Shown: in pieces, positions 10,329-56,349 of the stretch
Layout of the letters: each line of letters opens with the position of its first letter
Position numbering within the stretch: position 1 is the stretch's first letter
NCBI GenBank assembly: GCA_017654855.1
Contig: CM030337.1
Span: 2,356,001 to 2,420,000, forward strand
DNA length: 64,000 bases
Source of the DNA: Podospora anserina
Lineage: Eukaryota
Direction of reading: 5' to 3'
Notes under the pieces: generated by a model
What the model saw: only the letters and a program-made list of their open reading frames with translations
The model's database searches: none
What the model was told of the DNA's origin: nothing
Position numbers and translations under genes: made by a program

Positions 10329-11823
10329 TTATATGTGGAATCATCTTTGTTACCATCCCCTTAATACATCCATCAAACAGACCATTATCACCTCAAGTCA
10401 GTCAAAGCTCCGAAAGAAATGCTCGAGACAGCAGCACCTTTTCAAATCATGTAGAATAAAGCCTGAAGAACGATCTAACGAACAGACAAGGTGTTGAAAA
10501 TATGGTTTGGGCGTGATGATCAAAGTTTATCGGAATAAAGGGATACGTCGTTCGGAAAACCTTATGGGCGCACATTTGAAGAGAATTTCTCGTACAAATA
10601 TTCCGCCCTTAGACGCAACATGTCGATCTTCTTTCTCACGGATGCATGACGTTAATCCACCCCTACCCGTTACCAAATCCGGCTTTCCTCAACCCATCCC
10701 CACCTTTCCCAAACGACACCCATATTTGGACAGCGATGCCATGGCCGAGCTCCAACTGGCATATCGCGCAACATTGGTTGTGTTTACACACTCGCAAATC
10801 TTGCATGGTTCTCTGAGTTTTTATTTTCTAGACTTGGATTTTGTGGACACAAAGCTTTACTTGACACACTCAGAAGTCAATATCACCAATGTCCACAGAA
10901 AGCAGACACATATCTCGCATTATCGTTGCTATCTTATTCACTTCTTCATCCAGCCAGCCTCATGCTGTGACATTTTATTTTCTTCTCAAATTTTTTACTG
11001 TGGCTATCGTGTAAGATATTCTTGTTTGAGTTTCTACACAGATTTACAAAGATTTTCCCCCCTTCTCCAGTCCCAGCTATCCGCAATTGGCATAGATTGC
11101 CACTCTCTAAATTTTGCTGAAGTCTGAGCTATAAACAAGAACTCCCAATTGACTTCAACTAGCCTTGATCTTGTCCTCAGCTTACTATCCCAAGATATTT
11201 CCTTTTCTCCCAACTCTCTTCACTTTCACGTCCCTAGCCTCAGTCTCAGCAAAGCTCCGTCGCCATGTCCTCAAATCTAAGAACCTCCCCACTGTCTTCC
11301 AGTAACAGAAGAAAGATGATATTGTCGGAATCCTCTGTTGTCTTTAAGGTAATAGTCATCAGGACGGCACCAAAACTGGCAGCTCTCCAGAGCTCTGGCA
11401 TCTTGGGAAAGGCCTGTAGCTGTCTGGACAAAGACAACCTCGCCGCGAGGATACAGAGATGACTACCACAGACCCTGGTCACAGTTTTATCTGCCTCGGT
11501 CTTTCTGTCTTTACTGATATCTGGAAGTCGGAGAGATAGACGCCGGGTGGTGAGCAGAAACCGAAAAGACTGCAGTGTAGAGTTGTAGGTCTCCACATCT
11601 CCACATAATGGCGTGGGAAGGTCGAAAATGTTCAGCACCAGCTCATCATATCATGACAGGACCATTCAACATCCATCTAATAATCGTGATTACGAGACGC
11701 ATACTTCCAGCAAGGTTTCTGCCAGAACGACAGGAAATCGACTGGGCATCATTGGAAAACCAAAACAATCAGCACTATGCTAGCAATACATGCCATGTGC
11801 TTTCAAAAAGACAAAAACTGTAT

Positions 11824-12930
11824 CTAATCAGAATTACCCGCAGATGGCACTCTTTGTTTGAGCGCAGCTAGCCTCTCCCGGGCCAGACGTTCCTCCTCAT
11901 ATCTCATCTCCTGCAACTTCCCAAGCATCTCGTCTTTCTATACGGCGTCAGCGATGTCCCAGGCTAGACCAGGTAGGTGCAGAAATAACATACAACTTTG
12001 ACGAGATTGGTGGGGTCATCCCCCGCATTCTGTGCCACTCCAATGAACATATGGCTTGTGATCCGGATCTGGAGTTCGAGACAGCGGAGTCGTTCGGTAA
12101 TATCGCGATGCAAATCCTCCGTCATTTTGGTGAGCTGGTTCGCGGTGAGATTAGCGTTGTGTGGCTGCAAGAACACTGAGTCAGTTTCTGGTTGTGGAAG
12201 TGGTATCAAGAGTACGGTGGGACGAATCAAAACGACCTAGCGTGAACATGAAGATAAAGGCAGACCCAAAAGGAACATCAACCTACAGAGGATTTGTGAT
12301 CATGAATACTGAGAGTTTGAACCCTGGCAGTTGTCTCAGCAACCCGGACATCAACAACCTGTCCTCCCGTCAGCGAAAGTGTACAAGACAACAAACTGGT
12401 AAGTCACATCGCAAATTGCCACCCATGCCCAGGCAGTGCTTGACGCTGACCCCGGCCGCTACGCCTTTCCAAGAACGCAAACAAACCCGAAACGACACCG
12501 GTTAAGCAACCCTCCCTGGAACTTTCAGAGAAGTTCGGGAGGAAAGGTCTACCCACTGATGTCGATCAGACATCACGCAAGCTAAGCCTGCTAGGGCCGG
12601 CGTGGACACCCCACTACCGTATGTGAGGTTAGGCCAGTTGAGTCACCTCGGAACTTTGTTGCTGAGGTTGGTCCCAGCAACCGCATTCAAGTCCTGCAAG
12701 CCCATGCCGGTATTGCGCTGAAAAAGCCACGCAAGGCGATGTGTCTTCGGCAACCGAGACGCTCAAACGAGACGCCATCGCAAAAGTGGCGGAGATCAAA
12801 GAGATGAGGAGAATGGAGAGATGATATTCCATATGAGGCTGGTTGGGCAAAGAACTGGGCAAGGGGCAAAGGGGATGCCGGGGGGAAGACTTACCACCTG
12901 GTCAGTGGTGCTGGGTTGGATCTCAGTCAT
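11824..12930 (-). CDS. Small coiled-coil protein A (96 aa, three exons, 760-nt first intron)
   Basis: Exons 12930-12895 (MTEIQPSTTDQV), 12134-11994 and 11937-11824. Intron 12894-12135 (GTAAGT...GCTAAT...CAG) and intron 11993-11938 (GTATGT...GCTGAC...TAG) are both phase 0 and give an open frame. Confidence 0.7.
12350..12896 (-). ncRNA. Candidate structured intronic RNA element, copy A
   Basis: Colinear homology to 53751-54279, hairpins with compensatory changes, and a long-range complement of the 5' splice site at 12397-12405. Confidence 0.6.
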
Positions 12931-21873: not shown

Positions 21874-24800
21874 CCCCCCCACAGACAGCACACCGCCGTC
21901 CAAAATGAAGCCATCGCTAATATCCTCCGAAGCCCAATATACGCCCAGATTCTTCCACTTCCTTTGACTCCTTTGCCCAATACCCTAGTAGCCTTTTTCC
22001 CATACAAATATACGTTCTCCTACATATTTTAAACCGGAAAATCTTATATTCCTAACAGCTATATAAACTTTACGTGTTTCTCCCTTTATAGTATCTTTAT
22101 AAATCTATCCGCCGGTATTTCCAACCCAGAGATATGTTAAATACCAAATCTTCCTTCCTTTACTTATTTACTTACCTACTTATACCGTATATCGATATAC
22201 CGGGTCCTAGCGATATTCTGAGGGTTTAGAACTGTGATTTCGGCGTTCTTACTATCGGTATATAGTATATATGGCCTTAGCTGTAGTATACTATAGTCTT
22301 CTAATATCTTTAACACCTACTACAGTAAATACCCTATAAGCGTCAGGTTAATAAATTCTACCTCCGTCGTACTTAGGGCGATAAAGGTTTGCTTCTTACT
22401 CTTTTATAATACTGGCCCACTAGCTACGAAAACGACGTAGCCGCTAGTGGAATATCTCTAAAGTAAAATATTTATATATAAAGTATTTACGAATCCTATA
22501 AGTTTTATATCTTTTATCGAAAACTCGGAGCCTCCTAGTATAATATATAGTTTCCTAGTAGTAATTAAGTACCGGAAAAAGTATTTTATTAACTCTAAGT
22601 AACGTAGTAAGGGCCTAAAATTACCCCCGTAAAAGCGGTTAACGGTAAAAGTAATGTCGGGCCAAGTACCGGTAAATAACTAGTTTAACGTACCGGTTTT
22701 CCGAATATATTCCTTCACTTCTATAATTATTTTCTCCTATATAAAAGGAAGTTTTAGCTTAGCTAATTACGGTATAGTTACGCCGGTTATATTTTTATAG
22801 CCGAACTTTTCGAGTAAAGCGTTAATATAAGTTACTTAAGATAAGTAAATTTATTTCTTCCCGCAATTCTTTATAATATTAAAACCTAAAAACCTTTTCG
22901 GCTCGCTTAGTTTTTTAATACTATACTTACTCTTTAACCCGGTAGTAATATTTTTAATAATTTTTATTATAAGTATTAATATAAATAGATTATTTACGTA
23001 TAAAACTATTAAGGTACTTATCTTTTTATAACGGAATAAATAAAAGTTTAATAAAAGGGTATCGAAACTTAGTTTAATTATTATAAGTTTTATTATTTTA
23101 TATTAGTAAATAAGTAACTTCTTTAGGCCGTATAATACCCTTTTAAGCTAGTATATTTTATTTAATAATTTACTTAAGTTATTTAATAGTCGTACGTAGT
23201 ACTATACGATATTAAGGATTTTAATATTAAAAAATATTATTTTAAAGTCGTATTAAAAATATTTTTAATTATTTACGGTTATAATAGTTTAAAAGTATTT
23301 AATTATTACGCTATTTATAACGGTAGTATAAATATTCTATATAGCCTAAAAGTCTTTATTAAAAGTTATTATATATTACTTACTTTGCTTTAACTTTTAC
23401 TTTATTAATTTAAAGGTTTATTTTTTTATTATATATTTATTTATTCGGTAAAACGTTATAGCTTTTCGGCGTATTTATTAACTTATAAACGTTTTTTTTT
23501 AATAGGCCGGCGTTTTACTCCTTTATAGTAAATAATTAATATTTATAATAATTCTCGAATTTCTTTATTTACCGGTAATTTCTAAATATATAAAACTTAT
23601 TAATAATTTATAAAAGATAATCGATTTTAATTATAAATAAAGCGTAGGCTATTACTTTATATAATTATAAATTATTAAAATATATTATAAAAAAACTTTA
23701 ATAAAAGTATTTACTTTACTATAGTTTTTTATAAAAGTTTAATCCCTAATTTTTTATTATTACTCTATAAAACCGCTTTTAAACCGGCGAAAAAACTACC
23801 GCTTCCTTTATATAGCTTATATTAAATTCGAAATCGTCGTTAAAGTCTTTAACTAAGCTTTTTATATTTAAATTTAGTAACTTACTATTAATTTAATTAT
23901 TATTAAGCTCCCCTATAGCTTTACCTTCCTCCCCCCCTATTAACCTCGTAAGGGAAGTAAGCTTTTTTATAATAAAAAAGTTAATAGTATAAAGCGTTTA
24001 ATTATAATTTAGTAAAATAAATACCTCGGACCGTATATCCTTTATTTTTTCGGCGTTAAAAAAATCTTTTACGTTTAAAACTTTAAATAATAAAAATAAT
24101 ATTAATAATAATATAATTTTCGAAGTAAATAAAATAATTTATTTAAGGTCTTTAGCTTTCCCTATTTTAATTATTAAAGTACTTTACTATAAATCGGGCT
24201 TTAGTATAGTAATAAGTTTATTATCGAAAGTAACCTTCCTCCTTAAAAATATTATTTTATTAATAATAGTATTTTCTTTTTCGGCTATAATATTATTAGT
24301 AAAAACTATTTTATACTTAATATCTTTATATTTATCGTTATTAGGCTTATAAAAATCGTTTTTATTAAACTTTATAATATTAATTTTTATAATTTTATTA
24401 ATAATTAAGTTTTAAACTTAATATATTTTACTATATATATTTATATAATTAATAAACTTTTTTTTTTTTACCCTAATAATAAACTTATTTAAATTAACCC
24501 GGTAGGCCGGCTTAATATAGTAATACGCGTCGTAAAAGTATAAGCGTAAGTACCGAATATATAACTTCCGCTCGCCCTTAAATATATTAAGCTTTATAAT
24601 ATACTTTTCGTAAATATTAATATTTCTTTCGTTAACCCTCGAGGGTAATAAATTATTTACATAAACTATAAACTATATAATAAATAAAAATAATTTCTTT
24701 AATATTTTATAGATTAATATAATAGCCCTAATACGGTTAAGCGTAATCCTTACGGCCCTCTTTACCTTTTTATTTATTTACAGTAAGTAAGGTACGGTTT

Positions 24801-27429
24801 TAAAAATAGTAATACCTTCTTAGTCGGCCCAGGTAACTATACGGCTATCGTTAAAGGTTTTAAAGCCCTAAATAAATTCCGTACCGCTATTAAAGCCGAT
24901 AATACTAATTTTATACCCGGTTTAGTACGCGATTTTCGTCTCGAAATCCTTAACTTTATCGAATACTTACTTTTTCTTTATTATAAAGTTAATTTACTTA
25001 TAATTACTTTATATATTTATATATTAAATAAAATATTTATAATTTAAATATTTAAGGTTTTTATAAATAATAATATTAATATAAATAAAGTTAAATAGGT
25101 TATTAATTTACGAAAAGATTAATAAACTTAATTAATTTATTATTTTTATTATTATATAAAGCTCGTAAAAAAAGTTATTACCGATAAGCTTAATACCTAC
25201 CTATATATAAGTTTTATAAATATCGTTCTTATTAATATATATTAAGTAATAATATATTACCCGGTAATTAATAAATATTATTATAACTTTAATAAAAATT
25301 TTTATTAAAAATATTTTACTAAAATTAATATTAAGTATTATATTTATTTAATATATATTATTATTCCTAATTAATTTATATATTACTTATTTAATACCTT
25401 TAAGGATTAAATTATAACTTTTTTAGTCCTAAAAAATACTTTTATTAAGTAACTTATCCGCCGATATTAAATTAACGGGCGCTTATAAATAATATATCGC
25501 TTCCTTAAACTTTAAAGTAATAACCTAATTACTTAAAAAGGTAAATTATAACGCTACAGTACTCTAATAACTATATTTTATAATATTTCTTAACGACGAA
25601 AGGAACCTCTTTTCCTTCCCTTTAGGTAGTAAATAAAGTTTAATAAATTACTTTAATTTATTAAATATAAAATCTATATATCCGGAGTCGTAATATATAT
25701 AATTTTTAAATACTTTAACGGCTTATTAAATTTTAAAAATATTTATTAAGGAAAGTATTACTTTTAAGGGCCAAAACGAAAATCTAATTAATTATTATTA
25801 TAGTAAGTAAGGAATAATATATTAACGAAGTTATTAAATAGTATTAAAATATTATAAATAAATTAATCCTTCGAAAATCTAATATTAGTAATACTATTAG
25901 TATAGCCTTAAAAAATCTTTATTAATAAGCTAATACTTTACCGCTTTTCTTACCTATCCACTTATACCTTTTCCCTATACTCCTAATCTTTTAAAGCTTT
26001 ATTAAAATTATATTACTAATAGACTTTACTTTTCGGGTAATAACGATTATAATTTATATAATATTAATTATTTTTCTTTAAACTTTTAATATATTAATCG
26101 TATTTCTTTATTAAGATTAATAACATAATAAATAAAAGTATAATTACGGCTAGGGTTTTAATAATTTTAATAGTAATTTTAAAGTAAATTAATATAGTTT
26201 TTTTTATAACGGCTTTAACGTTATACTCCTAATAAAAAAGCGACTAGGTTATAGTACCGTCTTTTATTTTCCTTACTAACCGATCGTATAAATCGGGGTA
26301 CGTAGTTTTAATATTATTTAAGGTAATCCAAAAGTAAATTACGTAACCAATCTTAATTTCTATTATATTAAAACGATAGTGAAGGACCTTAAACTAATTA
26401 AAATAAATTTAAAATAAAGCGAAATTAATATACTTAAAAGTAAAATACTCCTTTAAAAATATATTAATAATATCGAAAGTACTATATTATAAGGCTTAAA
26501 TAACTTTTTAATATAAACTATAAATATTAATACTATCGGCCTTTTAACCTAAATTAAAAATTTATTATCGGATCTCGGGCTTTTTAACGGAAACTATTAT
26601 TAGATTTTAAATATTTAGATTATTAATACGCTATTGGTCGAAGGTAAGTATCTTTTTTTCCGTTAATAATTATATATTAACTTTAATATAGTCCTCTAAA
26701 CTATAATATATAAAGGATTAAGTTAATTAAAATTCTTAACCGGAAAAATCGGTTTTTAAGTTTAAAGCTAATAAAATTTAAAAGGTTCGTTACTTAACCG
26801 TAACGACGGTATTAATATTCCCTATAACTTTTATAAATTCTAAAAACTAAACTATAATAACGTTAATACTAATTATTTTAAAAGAAAAACTAATTAAAGA
26901 AAAGTCGTAAAAAAGATACTATAAAAAAAACGTTAAAAGAAAAATTTAAAGAAAGGCGTTACTTAACTTTATAACCGTTAATAGTAGGTTAAATTAATTT
27001 AAGTAAAGGGCGAGATACTTACTTTGCTATCGGTCTCCTAATAAGGCAGGATAGAGTTCTCGACTGCTACTGGAAAATAGTAACTTCTTAATTAAAAGGT
27101 TATAAAAATAATAGAATTAAAGAAACTTAATTAGGAAAAGGTTAGTACCGTAAACTATACTCTTATTAGTAAGGGGTGGTCGGTCGCTTTAACTCTTCGT
27201 TAAAATAAGGGTTAGGGTTAAAACCAGGCTTCCGTTGATTAGGAAGTTAGTTAACTCTCTTAACGCCTCTAAAATCGCCGTCGAAAGATTTAATTATATA
27301 ATATTAGCCTAACAAAGGTCGAAAAGTCGTAAGGTCCGGTGTGGTATTCGGCTTTGCGAGGTCGGGTTGTCGACGAGGGCGTCGACTTCGGTTTACTTAG
27401 TAATTTAAGCGTTAAAAAAGCTTATAACC

Positions 27430-27616
27430 TGTTAGGCTAGTGACCTAGGAAAGTCACTGGCTGCGAAAATGAGGCCAAAATTGGCTAGAAAAAAATAGTA
27501 AACAAATTGGTATTACAGTAGTTGGTTGTTGGTTAAAAAGTAAACAGTAAGAAAATCCAGCCCCAAGAGCAAACCGGTGTGGGTCTGGGAAAACCTGGGC
27601 CCTTTGGTGCCCCACA
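27430..27616 (-). repeat. 5' LTR (187 bp)
   Basis: Direct repeat of 21687-21873. Confidence 0.95.
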
Positions 27617-27717
27617 CCTTTTTTAGTATGTGTCAACAACAACGCTCTCACTCGTACAACAATTGTGGAAAACGCCGTTTCCGGAATCTTTAGATATTTG
27701 CGCGCAAGTCAAGTGGG

Positions 27718-29320
27718 TTAGTTGACTGCCTCAGTTACCTTCTTGGAAGGTCTAACCACACGCCCACGGCGAGTGACCCTCTGGGAGCTAGTCTCTGATG
27801 ACATCGTTGAAGCCATCGCCAAGACGGTATTAGGCTCCTGCCTTTCAGTTGTGGTGTTGACGGTGGGCGCAGCCTTCTTGGTACGCTTGGGTGTTGACTC
27901 TGAGGCGATCATGAGACCGGCCCTCTTTCTTGGAGGGACCCTCAGAGTGACTCTGGGCTCTTCAGTCTCAGGCTCCTCAAGACCATTTCCATCTTCCTTG
28001 CCACTATTCCCAACGGTCTCATTATCACGACCGGTCTAGACCGGAGGCAGAAAGCCAGTGTCAAGGAAGTAGAAGCCATCCTAAAGATCGCCATCGTCTT
28101 CAGATTCTGGTTCCATCTCCCACTGCGAGAGGCGGCGCCTGACCGAGGGAGGGAGACGGGGATTACTCCCTTTAACTGGACCTGGCTTCTTCTTCTTGGT
28201 GATCTTCCCAGTCACCTTCTTGCGGTTGACGGCTTCGGTGATCATTTTGTTTTGTGATCTTGGAGGTCCTGGCAATATTTTTCTTCTTTTTCTTAGTAGT
28301 GTCGAGATACCGTGGGGATGACAACTACTCCCGTGGGAAGTCCGAGCTTCTTGTTACTCGGCCGCCCCTTCAGCTTGGTAGTCATCTTGGGATTCTTGAT
28401 GCGCAGGTAAGGATCATCCTCTCCCTATAAAAACAGTATCAGAAAGATTCTCATTGAAGCAACTATCATCAAAAGACTTACCAAAGGCTGTTGAAGATCC
28501 CAGTGATGATGTATATCACTGAGACTGAGAGTCTCCTTCGAAATTCGATCGGCGATGACATGACGACAAGGAACGCCCAGCTGCAAGGATACCGTACAGT
28601 CTGCATTGCAATCCCCAAGTGGTCTCTTTGCAGGTCAGTTGTCTCTGGGGATATTACCCTGGTAGTGGCGATACTCATCCTGGATGAGGAGACGTCCCTT
28701 AAGCAATATATTCCTCGGCAGTTCACCAAGATACTCTTTTTCAAGAAATTCGTGGCGAACGCGAGTCTCATTGTTAGTTAACTTGCTGGTGAAGATGCTG
28801 AACTGCTCCTTCACCATTCTTTGATGGCGCGAATGAAGCTAGCGAGGTCGCCTCGACCGTTAATGAGGTGGCTTTTGATCGCGTGATTGGTTGATTCTGT
28901 TGTTGAAGTGACTCTTCCACCGAAGTTTCGATATCGCTTGGTGTAACAATGAGCCCACTGCTCGCGGAGGGGAATCCGCTGGTCCTGTATTTAGGGAAGG
29001 GTCCTCTGCTGGTCATGGAAATATTGAGACAGCTGTATCCAGGCCTTCCAAAACGCGCTCTGAGTCTGGGAGTAGAGGACCGACTTGAAGAAGACTATAA
29101 AGCTATGGGGATCCTTCTCGATAGTGACCGAGTGAGCATCTATATCAACATCTTCGCCACGGCGAAGGTTATCGAGGAATAACTTTTCCCGGGCAGTAAG
29201 ATTGGCAGCAGATTCCTAATCTGCATCAACATGTTGCTCTTCATCAGCCTCAACGGTGTTGGTGTTTCTTCTGGGCTTGGCATTGAAGAAGATATTCTTG
29301 ATGATGTGAAATATACAGAT
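27718..29320 (-). pseudogene. Mutator-like (MULE) transposase relic, 5'-truncated
   Basis: Hand translation gives CIFHIIKN (CxxH), WAHCYTKRYRNFGGRVTSTTESTNHAIKSHL (catalytic E region), SWIM-like CNADCTVSLQLGVPCRH, an intron at about 28426-28481, then DPYLRIKNPK..KGRP. Several in-frame stops. Confidence 0.85.
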
Positions 29321-50658: not shown

Positions 50659-52044
50659 TCAAACAACAACATGACTGCTCATATGCTCCACCGCCTCCTT
50701 GATCGTCCTCAGCATCCTCTTGTTCAGACAAAACGGACACCTGACCGGGTTCTCCACCACCGACACCGGCGCCCCGCTAGGGATCGGTGTGAGCGTCAGT
50801 TCTTCCCCTTGCTGTGCACCACCACCAGCGTTCCCACCGCCATTAGCAGTCTGAGGTTGTTGCGGTGTCTGCTGCTGCGGTTGGACTTGCTGCGGTTGGA
50901 CTTGCTGCGGTTGGACTTGCTGCGGTGTATTCGGCGCAAACTGCGGTTGCGCCGGAGGAGCCTGTTGCGGTTGTGCCCTCGGTCCGACGCTCGCGTTGCG
51001 AGTCCCCGGGTTGGGGGTCGTCAAGCCAGCTGCGTTCATGGCGTGCTGGGCGTAGGCTTGGTTGGCTATCGCGCCTAGGGCAGGTAAGCCGTTGTCAACG
51101 GTGCGATCGCCGCCGCTTTGGGGTTGTTGATGGTCAGGGGTGACTCCGGCGAGGTTGGCGGCGCCGCTGACGCTGTTCTCCTCCTGTTGCTGATAGACAC
51201 GGAGTGCATTCTGAAGCACGACTTCTGGGTCTTCTTCTGAGTGGAAAATTCCCGTATTTTCTGCATTGCCACCCATGGGATTGTTGTTTGGTGTTCCCGG
51301 CCCGCCGTCGGGGGAAGGGTTGTGTTGACGGCGGAGGACCTCCTCTTTGACGCGCTCGCATACTTCCAGAGTGGTCATTACGCCGAGGAAACGTTGGAGG
51401 TATTCCATAACCGTTACTGGGGGAAGGTCGGCGTTCACGTTGAGGTAACGAGGAAGGTTCTCGGCGAGGTAGGGGATGTCGTCGCCGAGGTTTTGGAGGG
51501 TTGTGGTCCCGGGGGCTGGATTGCCGCCTTCGCTGCTAGTTGGGCGACGCTGGCGTCTAACTAGGAGGCCGTAACGTTTCTTGAAGCGGTGGATCCATCC
51601 GGGGGAGAACTCGGGCGCGGGTTCGTCCTTGTATCGGGGGAGCTGATGGTAGATTGTCTTGGCTTTGTCGGCGAGCTCTTCGTTGGAGGGCTGGCGGCCA
51701 TTGGCGAGCATTTGCTGGTGCCAGAGGAGAACAAGTTTCTCGACGTCGGGCCAGTTGCCAAAGCGCAGACGGGAACCCGAGAGCTGGGGGTCGCCGTCGA
51801 GACGGGCATACTTGGGGGAGAGGGAGTGTGAGACGGTAGACTGAGAGATGGTTTGCTGGTACTGGCTGGCAAACCAGTCAATGCAGGCCTTATGGCTGGG
51901 GCGGACAGGCTGCGAGTTGGCCCATCGGCGGAGGGCGCGTCGCTGGTCGAGGGTGAGGGAGTGGCGCTCTCGCGTGGCCGAGCCGGGAGTTGACCCGATC
52001 TGGTCCATGGACTCGAGGGGCACGTCAGGCTTCATGGCCGACAT
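50659..52044 (-). CDS. CENP-B-type HTH DNA-binding protein with Q-rich region and C-terminal C2H2-like finger
   Basis: RHSLTLDQRRALR..ISQSTVSHSL, R.GNWPDVEKLVLLW, FSPGWIHRFKKRYGL; PQQVQ repeats; CPFC-x14-HMSSH. No DDE domain. Confidence 0.85.
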   Translation of the reverse strand: MSAMKPDVPLESMDQIGSTPGSATRERHSLTLDQRRALRRWANSQPVRPSHKACIDWFASQYQQTISQSTVSHSLSPKYARLDGDPQLSGSRLRFGNWPDVEKLVLLWHQQMLANGRQPSNEELADKAKTIYHQLPRYKDEPAPEFSPGWIHRFKKRYGLLVRRQRRPTSSEGGNPAPGTTTLQNLGDDIPYLAENLPRYLNVNADLPPVTVMEYLQRFLGVMTTLEVCERVKEEVLRRQHNPSPDGGPGTPNNNPMGGNAENTGIFHSEEDPEVVLQNALRVYQQQEENSVSGAANLAGVTPDHQQPQSGGDRTVDNGLPALGAIANQAYAQHAMNAAGLTTPNPGTRNASVGPRAQPQQAPPAQPQFAPNTPQQVQPQQVQPQQVQPQQQTPQQPQTANGGGNAGGGAQQGEELTLTPIPSGAPVSVVENPVRCPFCLNKRMLRTIKEAVEHMSSHVVV

Positions 52045-53068
52045 GGTGCTCGCTCCTCTGAATGGGAGCTGGTAAAAAGGCGATAAACGCCCTTTTGTCG
52101 GCGCAATGGAGCGCGGGGGGTTATATATGCAATGGCGGGCGAGACGAAGCTCTCGAATGCTTGGCTAGCCCCGATGCGAAATCGCTATCTGTGTGTATGG
52201 CGATTCGAGACAATTGAATATGCGGCGATGGCTGGTCTGGTGATCGTTGTAATGAGGTGTTGTGGAGGGCAAAAAAGTCGGCAAAGCGGGGAGCTACACG
52301 TGCACCACAACAATTGAGTTCGGTTAGTCAGCTGCCAGTGTGACTGACAGTTGTGGCACAACATCTGATTGGATGGCGCAGAAGGACGCATCGCCAACTT
52401 GCATGAGGCCACCACTTGCATCCACGACATTGCAAGCAATGAAGTTCTCATCATTACGCACGAAGCAGAATTCATCATGTTGGCTTCTAAGGTCTGTCCT
52501 CATGTAAATAGCAAGGCGGCCGAGTATCTATCGTCATTGCTTTCAAGAATGTAGTCATATGGCCCCTTTGAATCCTCTCATTCCCACCTCGTTTTCGTGA
52601 TTGCATAAGCCACCAGGTAGGTAGACACCCCGTCTTTCCGGTAACCAGAACCACTGTCTGCGCAAGAGCTTCAATATGTGCATTGCTAGACTAACACTCT
52701 TCCATACTGGTGTCCATCGCGATTCTGCAAGGGGATAAGAACCTGTTCGGCATCACTCCACGTTTCTGTTGTGATTGCACCAACTAGCCGACAGTTGTTT
52801 GTTTTGAAGTTTGTAGTGCAGCACGTCGATCTTCGACCCTAGCCAAGTCCGTGCCTCCTCCGCATATCTCCACTTTGCCCAACGACATCCGTACTCTAAT
52901 GATCGCCGGTCCCGGTCCCGGTCCCATAGCGGGACTCCCGTCTCACAGATCAAACACAAGCAATCGCTTCGGGCCAAAGCTACAATACAACCATTTGTCA
53001 TCGACTTCTCAACGCCATGCTATCGACTAAGGTATCGTCGCATCCCTGTTACTAACTAAAAAAGTCCC

Positions 53069-54304
53069 TCAAGAAGTCTTCTTCTCTGGCGTAGGACTCC
53101 TGCCCCGAGCCTCATAGTGTTCCATCTTCACTGCCTGCTCATCTTCAAACTCACGCTCCTGTGCCTCCTTCATCTCTCTCGATCTGGTGGAGATCGTTTG
53201 CATCTGCATCGATGTTAGCTTGCTGTCCAAACTTCACACGATGCACAAATAGAAATGTCACCGAACTTACCCCTTGGCGGATGCGCATGTCAGCAGACAC
53301 GTCTATCAACAGCTCTCTCATTGCTTTGTTCTCAAACTCGAGAACCTTCAATCTATTCTCAAGAAACTGGAACTGTGTCTTTACATGTCCCCAAATATTA
53401 TCAGAATCCTCGGTGGTCGACTGCTCCAACATTTGCAAGCCTTGATCAACCAAGATGACACCAGCATTGGCAACCAGTGAACCCATGCGAGGATCTTTCT
53501 GACATGTGCCAGAGTCACGACACAACTCAGTCGCAGTCATGCCCTCCTTGTTGACGGTCCACAGGATATCGCGCACCAGCTCCTCAGGCTCGGTCTTCAA
53601 AACAGTGTCCAACTCCTCGATCTGATCGATGAACTTAGCACATGGGAAAACGGGCAAGGTCAAGGAAAAATGAAGGCAAAGACTTGCAGAGGTGTGCCCG
53701 GTGAGGCTGAGACCGCTCACCAAGGCAGCGGCAGAGTCGGCGACATCTTAATCAACAGCCTAAAGCCCGCCAGTAAAGTGCACAAAGACAAAAGCTGGTA
53801 AGTCCCATCACAGATTGCCACCCTCGCCCAATCAGTGCTTCACTCTGGACACCTGAATCCTGCCCCGTCCAAGAGCACAGACCCTGAACGTTCTGGTTAG
53901 TCACTCCCCCACATGCTTCAAGAAGCTCGGGGGATAAGGAGACCATTGATGGTATCAGCATCGGCGAATAGCCGGGCCAGCGTACACACCCCACTACCGT
54001 ATGCCGGGGTTGAGCCAGAGTCACCTCGGAACTTGTTGATGAGGTTGGCCCCAACAACACCATTCAAGAACTGCAAGCCACGCCAATTGCGGGAGAGTGA
54101 AACCACCAAGGCGAAAAGTCCCTGGCAGTTCGGTAGACCCTCAAAGAGATGATGCCCCTCGCAAAATAGCTGAGATCGAAGGCTTGAGGAGAATGTGAAG
54201 AAGTGATGTTCCACAAGAGGCTGGTTGGGCAAAGGACTGGGAAGGATGGCAAAGAAGATGTCGGGCGAAGAACTTACCATTTGGTCTTGGTCGAATGAGG
54301 CCAT
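53069..54304 (-). CDS. Small coiled-coil protein B (170 aa, three exons, 656-nt first intron)
   Basis: Exons 54304-54278 (MASFDQDQM), 53621-53271 and 53203-53069. Intron 54277-53622 (GTAAGT...GCTAAG...CAG) and intron 53270-53204 (GTAAGT...GCTAAC...CAG) are both phase 0 and give an open frame. Confidence 0.75.
53751..54279 (-). ncRNA. Candidate structured intronic RNA element, copy B
   Basis: Colinear homology to 12350-12896; complement of the 5' splice site at 53796-53804; conserved hairpins. Confidence 0.6.
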
Positions 54305-54462
54305 CGTCAGAGTCGCTCAAAGGGCGAAAGTGCTTGGGACGAGAGGAAGGCGAAGGTGATGATGATGGTGAAATGGTGGTGACTGAGAAGGATGGCGACG
54401 GGAGGCAGTGGTGGCAGGTCGTGGCCAACAGGGCGAGCAATTGTAAAATTTATTGGAAGTGG

Positions 54463-54510
54463 AAAGAATTGAAAGGGAAAAGAATTGAAAGGGAAAAGAA
54501 TTGAAAGAGG
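54463..54510. repeat. 16-bp tandem repeat x3 in the putative 5' UTR of gene B
   Basis: aaagaattgaaaggga twice, plus one imperfect copy. Confidence 0.85.
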
Positions 54511-54558
54511 AAATTTTTGCAAGAGAGAATTGAGGGGGAGATTGTGGGAGGGAGGAGT

Positions 54559-54568
54559 TGAATATATA
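54559..54568 (-). promoter_or_regulatory. Putative TATA box of gene B (TATATATTCA)
   Basis: The same tgaatatata string (plus strand) lies upstream of gene A at about 13109-13118. Both are followed on the coding strand by pyrimidine-rich leaders. Confidence 0.45.
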
Positions 54569-56349
54569 GCCGGTGGTCATGGGTCTTTGCGTGCCTGCAA
54601 ATTCCGGGAGCAGTTGTAAATAGTCTGTGCGTGGCCTATAGAATCTCAAGGACAATACCGTCGTCATCTTTGATGCCTTATTGCTCTTTCTGTTGTGGTC
54701 TTCTTTCAGTGCCTGCCGGTGTGGGAGCAACCTTGATGGCTGAGGATCAGACGACAATGGGATAAGTGGGCCCAACAGACGGCGTGGAATCTCCTGGATG
54801 CTGCTGCCATCAGCTCTGGGGCTAGATAGATATCCATGTTAAGTGGCAGTTTTGTATATCACTCAAGATCCAACAAGGCCAGTGCGATGTTCTAGTTCCA
54901 AGATTCTGGTCTAAGGGGGCTTTAACTCTGCTCTACTATCTCCTTCTAAACATCTCATCCTCCAGCTCATATTTAAAGTACCGTAGATGCTTAAAGAAAG
55001 TCTATATCTATTTCCCTACGATATCGGAGTGGAAAGATTATCCGAAGGCTTGCAACCCAGTGAGCTGAGACAAGTTGTGATGACTTCAAGACAAGTCAAA
55101 GCACTGGGTTGTCTATTCTCTCCTCAAATTTCAACCAACGTCCCCAGAAGCTCCATCTCAACATACATCCCCCTAAGTAGCAATCAAGATTGAAAGCGAA
55201 ATCACAGTTTTCCCATCTTGGAACCTATCTAAATCTTACCCCAGAACTTTACAAAAACTTCTCCCAGATTCATCCCAGAGTTCGCCCCCCAGCAATATTA
55301 GCAGCATGCACAAAGAAAACCAAACCTATTCCATCATTAAACAAAACCACCAAAAGAACGCCACCCCCCCCCCAACCCAGTCCAGGTTTCCATCCTGATT
55401 ACTACTACTATGAGAGTAAACCACCATTTAACACCACCTCCACAATTTGGGCATCCTCACCCCCTCAAGTCCACAATCCCAGCCTTGTTCCCCTTCGGGC
55501 GCCAGCGAGCCTCCCCATCACAGAAGTCAGAAGCTGAGCAGCCGGTCACGGCTAACGAAGAGCATACCGTCTGGTACCACTCGATCCCTGCATCTCTGTC
55601 CTCCACATCACTTTTCAACCAAGCAATGGCAGACTTGTTTTGAGCAGACTTGCTCCGAACAGTCTTGGGCTGAACAGTTTTGGCCTGCCGAGATGGGCAG
55701 AGTATCACCTGTTCGCGCTGCTGGATGTTGGGGGTTGGAATGCTGAGAAGGAGATGCCCGTCTGCGCCGGACAGTTACGGAGGGGCTGCTTAGAAAGGCA
55801 GCGACAGAATGCGTCCAAACCCACGACCAACAGCAGCGTGAGCAGTTGCCGATACTGTCATCCAAGCATATGGGAAATGAAAACAGCGGATTGAGACTTC
55901 GTTTCCAAGACAAGAAAGAGGAAAAGAAGTGCCAGCAACAATAGATCGACACAAAAGAGATAAGTGCGAGAACATCACAACCTGGAACAAATGGTCAAAG
56001 TACAATTGTGTTCAGGATGGATGGTAGGCTAGAAATATATAAAGTCAGGAGACAATCGATTTGATATAAACACCGTTCGCAGTGAAGATGCAAGAGTGGC
56101 AAAGATAAACACAGCACTGGGAAGACATCCGGAGAAATAGTAATGGCCTTTAGACACAACAAATAGGCCTCCGCAGATAGGCAATGCCCCTTGAGAGATA
56201 ACCTCTCGGCCTTTCCAGGTCGTCCAAGGGGTTCCGAAAAAGTATTTGCGGCCTCTGAAAATGTTGAAAAGGCCTTGTAATATAGTTCAAAGCCCCAAAA
56301 TGATTACCAAAGACGTCTTGCGAGATAGCCTTGAGGCATAATTATATTT

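Follow-up and report, generated by a model that had tools for sequence, protein, structure and literature searches.

In filamentous fungi most introns are short and change rapidly. One of more than 500 nt that has outlasted its own coding exons, both between old paralogues and across genera, points to a non-coding role not yet recognised, and the question raised by the present locus is whether that role lies in the folding of the intron RNA, in the opposite strand, or in neither. The locus belongs to a 64-kb stretch of Podospora anserina DNA (hereafter the window), with about 50% G+C in genes and a G+C of 0.20–0.32 in a block at 22–28 kb, and involves two paralogous genes, copies A and B (Table 1). 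A first-pass annotation had described in their conserved intron three hairpins with compensatory substitutions, set in a multi-branched domain closed by a 'splice-site helix', and had concluded that selection acts on RNA secondary structure.

Table 1. Features of copies A and B and their positions in the window.
Feature	Copy	Positions	Strand	Remarks
Exon 1	A	ATG at 12929	-	derived gene structure
Intron 1	A	12359..12894	-	536 nt, GTAAGT, CTGAC branch site, ACAG
Exon 2	A	12287..12358	-	24 codons, open; short intron 2 follows
Exon 1	B	54278-54304	-	derived gene structure
Intron 1 (predicted)	B	53760..54277	-	518 nt, GTAAGT to TTTAG; CTGGC at branch-site position
Exon 2	B	53688..53759	-	24 codons; in-frame TAA at 53748-53750
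Intron 2	B	53622-53687	-	GC-AG
Sense 5' splice site	A	12889-12894	-	GTAAGT, sequence
Sense 5' splice site	B	54272..54277	-	GTAAGT, sequence
Invariant 18-mer CTTTGCCCAACCAGCCTC	B	54217..54234	-	identical in A and B
Invariant 16-mer AAGTTCCGAGGTGACT	B	54019..54034	-	identical in A and B
Invariant 18-mer CATACGGTAGTGGGGTGT	B	53986..54003	-	identical in A and B
Hairpin 1	A	12511..12542	-	-14.9 kcal/mol; best 34-nt hairpin of the A intron
Hairpin 1	B	53905..53934	-	-14.5 kcal/mol
Hairpin 2	A	12658..12681	-	-12.5 kcal/mol
Hairpin 2	B	54034..54059	-	-10.5 kcal/mol minus strand, -6.2 plus strand; within near-invariant core
Hairpin 3	A	12557..12575	-	7-bp stem, 5-nt loop; in the minimum-energy fold of the A interval
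Hairpin 3	B	53948..53962	-	4-bp stem, 7-nt loop
Antisense intron	B	53798..53900	+	103 nt, GT..AG; joint 53796 to 53900, shifted one base
Antisense 5' splice site CTGGTAAGTCC	B	53795..53805	+	donor of the joint; complement of the 'ACUUACC' arm
Antisense donor motif CTGGTAAGTC	A	12396..12405	+	sequence

A conserved non-coding element in the first intron

The product of both genes is a small coiled-coil protein, which searches returned from Podospora and Cercophora only, and identity between the proteins of the two copies is 37% over 62 aa. Downstream, the copy B gene has a reading frame that shows 96% identity to "PODANS_6_558, partial" of Podospora anserina and a 75% match to a Cercophora samala protein. 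The GTAAGT donors of the two sense introns fit the fungal consensus for a U2-type spliceosomal intron. In the case of copy A, CTGAC (branch consensus CTRAC) lies 11 nt ahead of the ACAG acceptor, and the predicted borders of intron 1 are exactly those of two models of the A orthologue in sibling Podospora species (P0007 and P0008), in which exon 1, ending ..CAGGTG, is joined to an exon 2 that begins GTTGTTGATG..; exon 2 of copy A matches the P0007 residues VVDVRVAE(R/T)TARVQTLSIHDH(Q/K)SS. In the case of copy B, CTGGC precedes TTTAG, the branch A of the CTRAC consensus being absent there, and exon 2 reads AVD*DV against AVDQDV in the C. samala model P0004 (tblastn).

At the DNA level (blastn), the two copies align with 71% identity over 555 columns (A 12903-12366, B 54286-53766), a similarity that begins about 10 nt before the GTAAGT donor and fades near the acceptor, whereas the exons gave no blastn alignment. 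With 71% DNA identity in the intron against 37% identity between the proteins, the intron is far better conserved than the coding sequence, and intron 1 is the best-conserved part of both loci. No third copy was found in the window; a candidate at 10917-11100 on the plus strand (nhmmer E 0.004, 9.8 bits, compositional bias 17.1) was rejected. Conservation within the intron is uneven: identical runs of at least 16 nt number three (18, 18 and 16 nt), where 0.158 would be expected (p 0.0004), and identity per 30-column window has a variance of 21.2, where a binomial would give 6.9. The mismatches are spread over the codon phases as 44, 53 and 54, indel lengths are for the most part not divisible by 3, and stop codons occur in all six frames of both intron copies. 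Substitutions comprise 83 transitions and 68 transversions, a proportion that is not RIP-like, and RIP was rejected as the cause of the divergence. The segment shared by A and B is a real conserved non-coding element, under patchy constraint at the level of the nucleotide and not of the codon.

Among 4227 Rfam models, the TPP model included, none matched the window at its gathering score, and the best match in B 53500-54400 with E up to 10 was SNORD23, whose 17.3 bits fall short of its gathering score of 64. The intron showed no recognisable ligand-binding motif. A gapped 27-base pattern of the element had no match in metagenomes, and two metagenome loci (L001 and L002) found with an 18-mer query were set aside as chance, the match spanning only 18–20 nt. 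SnoRNA boxes, a U2-like GUAGUG and heat-shock-like TTCnnGAA motifs were considered by eye only and dropped as over-reading.

Two automated gene models, P0003 (NCBI) and P0004 (C. samala, MGLQFLN...), translate part of the intron. The latter follows the core of copy B with 79.5% identity over 44 aa, so that the core is conserved between genera. These models raise the alternative that part of the intron is a current or recent coding first exon of the C. samala type, used alternatively and decayed here. In this regard, P0004 is stop-free through the core and the hairpin 1 region, where, past one frame shift, it still follows B at 19 of 22 residues (counted on the printed alignment). Besides this frame shift, B differs from P0004 in lacking the ATG and in carrying a TGA in the hairpin 1 region and a TAA in exon 2; copy A retains ATGGGCTTGCAG, and P0003 also translates the core. 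The substitutions between A and B, however, argue against a coding past: they lack codon periodicity, both copies bear stops in every frame, and a test for a protein-coding exon returned neither a shared open frame nor codon-periodic substitutions. Over the 16 in-frame codons GLQFLNGVVGANLINK, the 8 base differences between A and B fall as 2, 4 and 2 on positions 1, 2 and 3, mostly on the first two, and the codons TAC GGT AGT GGG GTG are identical at every base despite the low protein identity of the exons. Moreover, the N-terminus of P0004 found only itself among 5.8 billion clusters, and the 132-aa intron ORF, compared with 1.84 billion representatives, found its own ORF, P0004 and one spurious match. 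A present or decayed coding exon is in our view improbable.

Folding energies and the internal hairpins

The structural comparison is one of two sequences, A and B, and on it the case for selection on RNA folding is modest. Folded as single sequences, the whole introns are close to their shuffles (z -0.97, with 20 of 100 shuffles as good, and z -0.79, with 15 of 100), and the best 34-nt hairpin is matched or beaten by 31 of 100 dinucleotide shuffles in A and by 38 of 100 in B. For the interval that runs from hairpin 2 to hairpin 1, the minus strand of copy B has z -0.86, a level that 43 of 200 shuffles equal or better, and its plus strand z -0.73, whereas the corresponding values for copy A are z -3.65 and z -2.91, with none of 200 shuffles as good and with a minimum-energy fold that makes up 19% of the ensemble. 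When both copies are folded together (RNAalifold), the minus-strand consensus reaches -103.6 against -84.7 +/- 6.8 for column-shuffled alignments (z -2.78, 0 of 150), and the plus-strand consensus z -1.24, with 13 of 150 shuffles as low. The expectation that the intron would fold better than shuffled sequence thus holds for the A interval and the minus-strand consensus, and fails for the whole introns and the B interval.

Pairs in which both partners have changed number 16 in the minus-strand consensus. Predicting the fold anew for each shuffled alignment gives 10.4 +/- 3.1 such pairs, and as many as 16 in 6 of 150 cases; on the plus strand there are 11 against 8.8, a number reached by 35 of 150. 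Compensatory pairs in the consensus are, then, marginally above a fair null. Among 16 windows of 120 columns per strand, four on the minus strand, within B 54185-53924, give z -2.35 to -3.12, and one of the minus-strand windows there gives z +0.16; as aligned by MAFFT, the domain has a structure conservation index of 0.54. Selection on the RNA structure of the intron is only partly supported: the consensus energy and the retention of hairpin 1 speak for it, and the whole-intron energies and the marginal covariation do not.

Hairpin 1 is the one of the three proposed hairpins that carries paired changes, and we regard these as suggestive. It lies in both copies where the first-pass annotation had placed it. 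When the 2-nt gap is assumed to fall in the loop, an assumption on which all the pair counts depend, A and B differ at 12 of 30 positions, and of the 12 pairs seven are unchanged, three have changed on both sides and still pair (C-G to U-A, U-A to C-G and A-U to G-C, one of these named earlier), one has gone from G-C to G-U, and one is broken (A-U to A.A). Guided by sequence alone, MAFFT places the gap at the end of the hairpin and displaces the 3' arm by 2 columns, so that the label 'compensatory' depends on a structure-guided alignment. In a neutral simulation of 12 substitutions over 30 positions, a uniform model kept an equally stable hairpin in 0.21% of its 20000 trials, and models with transition bias did so in 0.86% and 0.68%, percentages that are nominal, as this hairpin was chosen after some six candidates had been viewed. 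After allowing for these, its retention is suggestive, not decisive. The hairpin sits in the most divergent stretch of the intron alignment and is nevertheless kept. It folds equally well on the plus strand (-16.0 and -13.5 kcal/mol), and its window gives z -3.35 there against -1.77 on the minus strand, the only plus-strand window that low.

Hairpins 2 and 3 are likewise present in both copies at the proposed positions, and it is their compensatory changes that were not borne out. In hairpin 2 the shared pairs are all invariant and the sole double change replaces C-G by a U.U mismatch, copy B having one extra G-C pair beside the loop; in hairpin 3 the four shared pairs (GAUG/CAUC) are identical in the two copies and are all that they have in common, within an ambiguous local alignment.

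These results bear on the alternative that the element has no function, that gene conversion between A and B or a locally slow mutation rate preserved the similarity, and that the hairpins are shared by chance. Single-sequence hairpins that are unexceptional, covariation that is marginal and the want of compensation in hairpins 2 and 3 are what it would lead one to expect. The variance of identity, however, is far above that of a uniform process, the core is conserved in another genus, which conversion between paralogues cannot explain, and hairpin 1 has been retained within the most divergent stretch. Absence of function therefore seems unlikely to us.

The closing helix and a probable antisense splice site

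In the minimum-energy fold of the A interval, hairpin 2 is followed by a closing helix (GAGGU.ACUCA/UGGGU..ACCUU) around three hairpins, and then by hairpin 1. The B interval also contains hairpins 2 and 1 and a closing helix much like that of A, with an interior that forms one long irregular hairpin; imposing on B the three-hairpin fold of A costs 11 kcal/mol (-46.1 against its own minimum of -57.0 kcal/mol), and such a fold was rejected for this copy. The multi-branched domain is accordingly seen in A only, and the common fold that had been proposed is not supported.

The proposed splice-site helix corresponds at the DNA level to TGGTAAGT(C) against its complement, 8–9 nt long, a terminal repeat whose score is reached by 14 of 500 shuffles in A and 60 of 500 in B. 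A repeat search reported none between the intron ends, and the 8–9 nt are short of the 45–55 nt of known symmetrical introns. The rest of the closing pairing involves G.U pairs and bulges between a pyrimidine-rich 5' arm and a purine-rich 3' arm; compared with shuffled arms, the terminal arms give z -1.17 in A (43 of 300) and z -2.83 in B (0 of 300), and their pairing owes much to base composition. Among the 30 consensus pairs of the closing helices, 26 are invariant, four have changed on one side and none on both. Controls on these pair counts (0 of 500 shuffles; 0–2 double changes in slid versions) are left out of the case for structure, since it was these two sequences that had supplied the structure in the first place. 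Further inside, consensus helices 4-5 (A2 columns 37-60 with 477-500) comprise 17 pairs, none of them broken, with linkers of about 25 nt and about 46 nt in copy A; these inner, zipper-like arms lack support from covariation.

The outer 8–9 bp of the helix are best explained as two opposed splice donors, that is, as two 5' splice sites lying on opposite strands, rather than as a structural closure of the intron. In one RNA-like run the second of these sites appears in use. The only joint at copy B comes from a single contig of run X15 (depth 7.7, shorter side 29 letters), which joins the plus strand across an intron with the consensus donor CTG/GTAAGT (cut after CTG) and the acceptor TTAG, and the donor motif is conserved in copy A. 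Runs X15, X17, X19 and X20 are only guessed to be RNA and consist of unstranded short contigs; the joint was not seen in the last three. Contigs cover copy B from about 52662 to 54709, leaving 52600-52661 and the region above 54709 uncovered, and the cover of X20 is confined to 53914-54081 and 54243-54410. In all four RNA-like runs, contigs continue unbroken across the sense donor at 54277 and none shows a joint for the excision of sense intron 1 of copy B, although contigs can miss minor forms. Those of X15, X17 and X19 are colinear with the genome through the short downstream minus-strand introns of B. Runs X17 and X19 also show a dip in depth at 53593-53915.

It is possible that the conserved blocks serve an antisense (plus-strand) non-coding transcript, or are DNA-level sites regulating that transcript or the sense gene; ACTTACC would then be the antisense donor, the TAACC box its acceptor, and the hairpins incidental. 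Besides the GT..AG joint and the conservation of its donor motif in A, the colinearity of the X15, X17 and X19 contigs through the minus-strand introns is in keeping with a plus-strand RNA that dominates at B, copy B has a broken sense reading frame, the perfect blocks of 16–18 nt resemble protein-binding sites, the hairpin 1 window folds better on the plus strand, and PMC9801653 reports 1472 antisense transcripts from P. anserina. We nonetheless give this possibility less weight than a role of the sense RNA. The joint is a single contig with a short flank, from one of four unstranded runs whose RNA nature is guessed; overall, the consensus fold is better on the minus strand; hairpin 2 of B loses stability on the plus strand; and the plus strand lacks a convincing open reading frame.

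A putative regulatory intron RNA and its relation to known systems

With a probability of roughly 0.4, we favour the reading that the interval is a cis-acting regulatory intron RNA, carried within a first intron of unusual length in two paralogues that diverged long ago. The near-invariant core bearing hairpin 2 would form one part of this RNA, and the variable flank, with hairpin 1 maintained by paired changes, another. Such pairing might shorten the effective distance between the splice sites or set the fraction of transcripts in which the intron is retained, and, given the opposed donors, the element may also couple sense and antisense transcription. We infer that the folds form in the cell and affect splicing. 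A more elaborate version strikes us as doubtful: that of an undescribed, Sordariales-specific class of structured regulatory introns. In these, a zipper, together with an internal sequence (ACUUACC) resembling the 5' end of U1, would lock the sense 5' splice site into a helix and set retention; on the opposite strand the same letters would provide the donor of a spliced antisense RNA, and the conserved palindromic pair of splice sites would tie the splicing of the sense RNA to antisense transcription in both paralogues.

Should the fold, or the pair of facing splice sites, turn out to have a function, Podospora, a genetic model, would offer a tractable example of splicing that is controlled by structure or coupled to antisense transcription. 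Otherwise the locus still counsels caution, since two automated gene models translate the intron and opposed splice donors can be mistaken for an RNA helix. Fungal TPP-riboswitch introns hide their 5' splice site by pairing, and the present element is like them in being a conserved intronic block whose pairing with the donor could set splicing; it differs in that the TPP model finds no match here.

Natural antisense transcripts of P. anserina (PMC9801653) would be comparable, in that the spliced transcript suggested at copy B lies opposite an annotated gene; the available part of that report does not describe conservation of an antisense donor between paralogues, and the gene name, under three spellings, has no match in its supplement.

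Yet another origin to consider is a relic of a proliferating intron, either introner-like or of the symmetrical (stw)intron type of the Hypoxylaceae with terminal inverted repeats, which both paralogues would have inherited or received by insertion. The similarity between A and B is indeed bounded, from about 10 nt before the donor to near the acceptor, flanked by exons that do not align, and the intron is long, with ends that are complementary in the RNA fold. In the Hypoxylaceae, as given in the accessible sections of PMC8469720, (stw)introns of 93–207 nt have inverted repeats of 45–55 nt and about 73% DNA identity, and their copies, which sit at new positions, run into the tens. The Podospora intron shares with them its occurrence in a Sordariomycete, complementary ends, the lack of an Rfam family and splice-like signals on both strands, but it exceeds 500 nt, has a repeat of only 8–9 nt with a score that shuffles can reach, and is known in two copies, in paralogues. 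Furthermore, the genuine intron of Hypoxylon is on the coding strand only (PMC8469720, same sections), whereas at copy B an antisense intron was seen, in one contig. Introner-like elements of the Dothideomycetes resemble it in being longer than ordinary introns, in their predicted stable structure and in their similarity across genes with unalignable exons; these, however, number hundreds of copies in unrelated genes in the portion of PMC3609843 available, against two in the 64 kb studied here, which occupy homologous positions in paralogues. In translated searches the element was confined to Podospora and Cercophora, and neither the 83:68 ratio of transitions to transversions nor the patchy conservation suggests a uniform decay. 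Such an origin is very improbable.

A regulatory intron RNA has a counterpart in geometry in the zipper stems of long Saccharomyces cerevisiae introns, such as those of RPS17B and RPL7B (PMC12350175 and PMC12311795, in the parts available). There, as here, the intron is long for its genome, and a stretch downstream of the 5' splice site would, by pairing with one upstream of the branch site, draw these sites closer; helices 4-5, by virtue of their 17 pairs and their two linkers, fall in silico within the positional definition given in PMC12350175. The differences are twofold. [quoted passage not shown]

Reading frame of copy B

Compared with the Cercophora samala gene model P0004, which follows copy B, one of the two divergent paralogous genes, through the core of its conserved first intron, copy B carries an in-frame TAA in exon 2, at 53748-53750 (-). 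Over 53760-54100 (-), the same comparison places in copy B a TGA and one frame shift, as well as the absence of an ATG at the start of the model. The NCBI P. anserina model of this copy is itself labelled 'partial'. Copy B may be a pseudogene in the present genome, or its start may be located further downstream.

RNA-like contigs around copy B

Four sequencing runs, guessed to be RNA (X15, X17, X19 and X20), gave unstranded contigs in this region. In two of them, contig depth over 53593-53915 falls to about half that of both flanks (3.57 vs 7.74 and 9.84 in X17; 4.4 vs 7.8 and 8.4 in X19), and contig ends recur close to 53605-53620 and 53900-53916. Partial splicing, be it on the plus or the minus strand, may account for this dip. 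The single variant found across the four runs, 53850 C>T, is carried by one X15 contig, with a depth of 2.4 of 4.9, and falls within the putative antisense intron (53798-53900 (+), GT..AG) given by an X15 contig joint. Further along, one X17 contig joins 52583-52612 straight to 52702, skipping about 89 nt; the ends of this joint, as reported, are not GT..AG on either strand, and the skipped segment contains a good plus-strand donor, CAG|GTAGGT (52617), together with a CTAAC box (52691-52695).

Neighbouring sequences and a probable third gene copy

Features of the window outside the two gene copies
Feature	Position	Strand	Location or size
Third, partial gene copy (probable)	11249-11650	-	downstream of gene A stop
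AT-rich block	22000-28000
Open frame	50659-52164	-	501 aa; adjoins copy B
CAC/CAT-rich stretch	54335-54371		37 nt; upstream of copy B ATG

The open frame encodes an HTH_ABP1_N domain (E 2.9e-24) as well as an HTH_Tnp_Tc5 domain (E 1.2e-18), which marks its predicted product as a DNA-binding protein resembling CENP-B or a Tc5 transposase. In X15, X17 and X19, contigs that run on into unrelated sequence also match the CAC/CAT-rich stretch (7 differences), which is a short dispersed or low-complexity repeat.

Beside gene A, the segment similar to copy B exon 3 (37% over 62 aa, TTEDSDNI included), next to which no copy of the intron was found, is probably a remnant of a partial third gene-family copy. 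The AT-rich block, with a G+C of 0.20-0.32 vs ~0.50 in its flanks, looks like a RIP-degraded repeat region.
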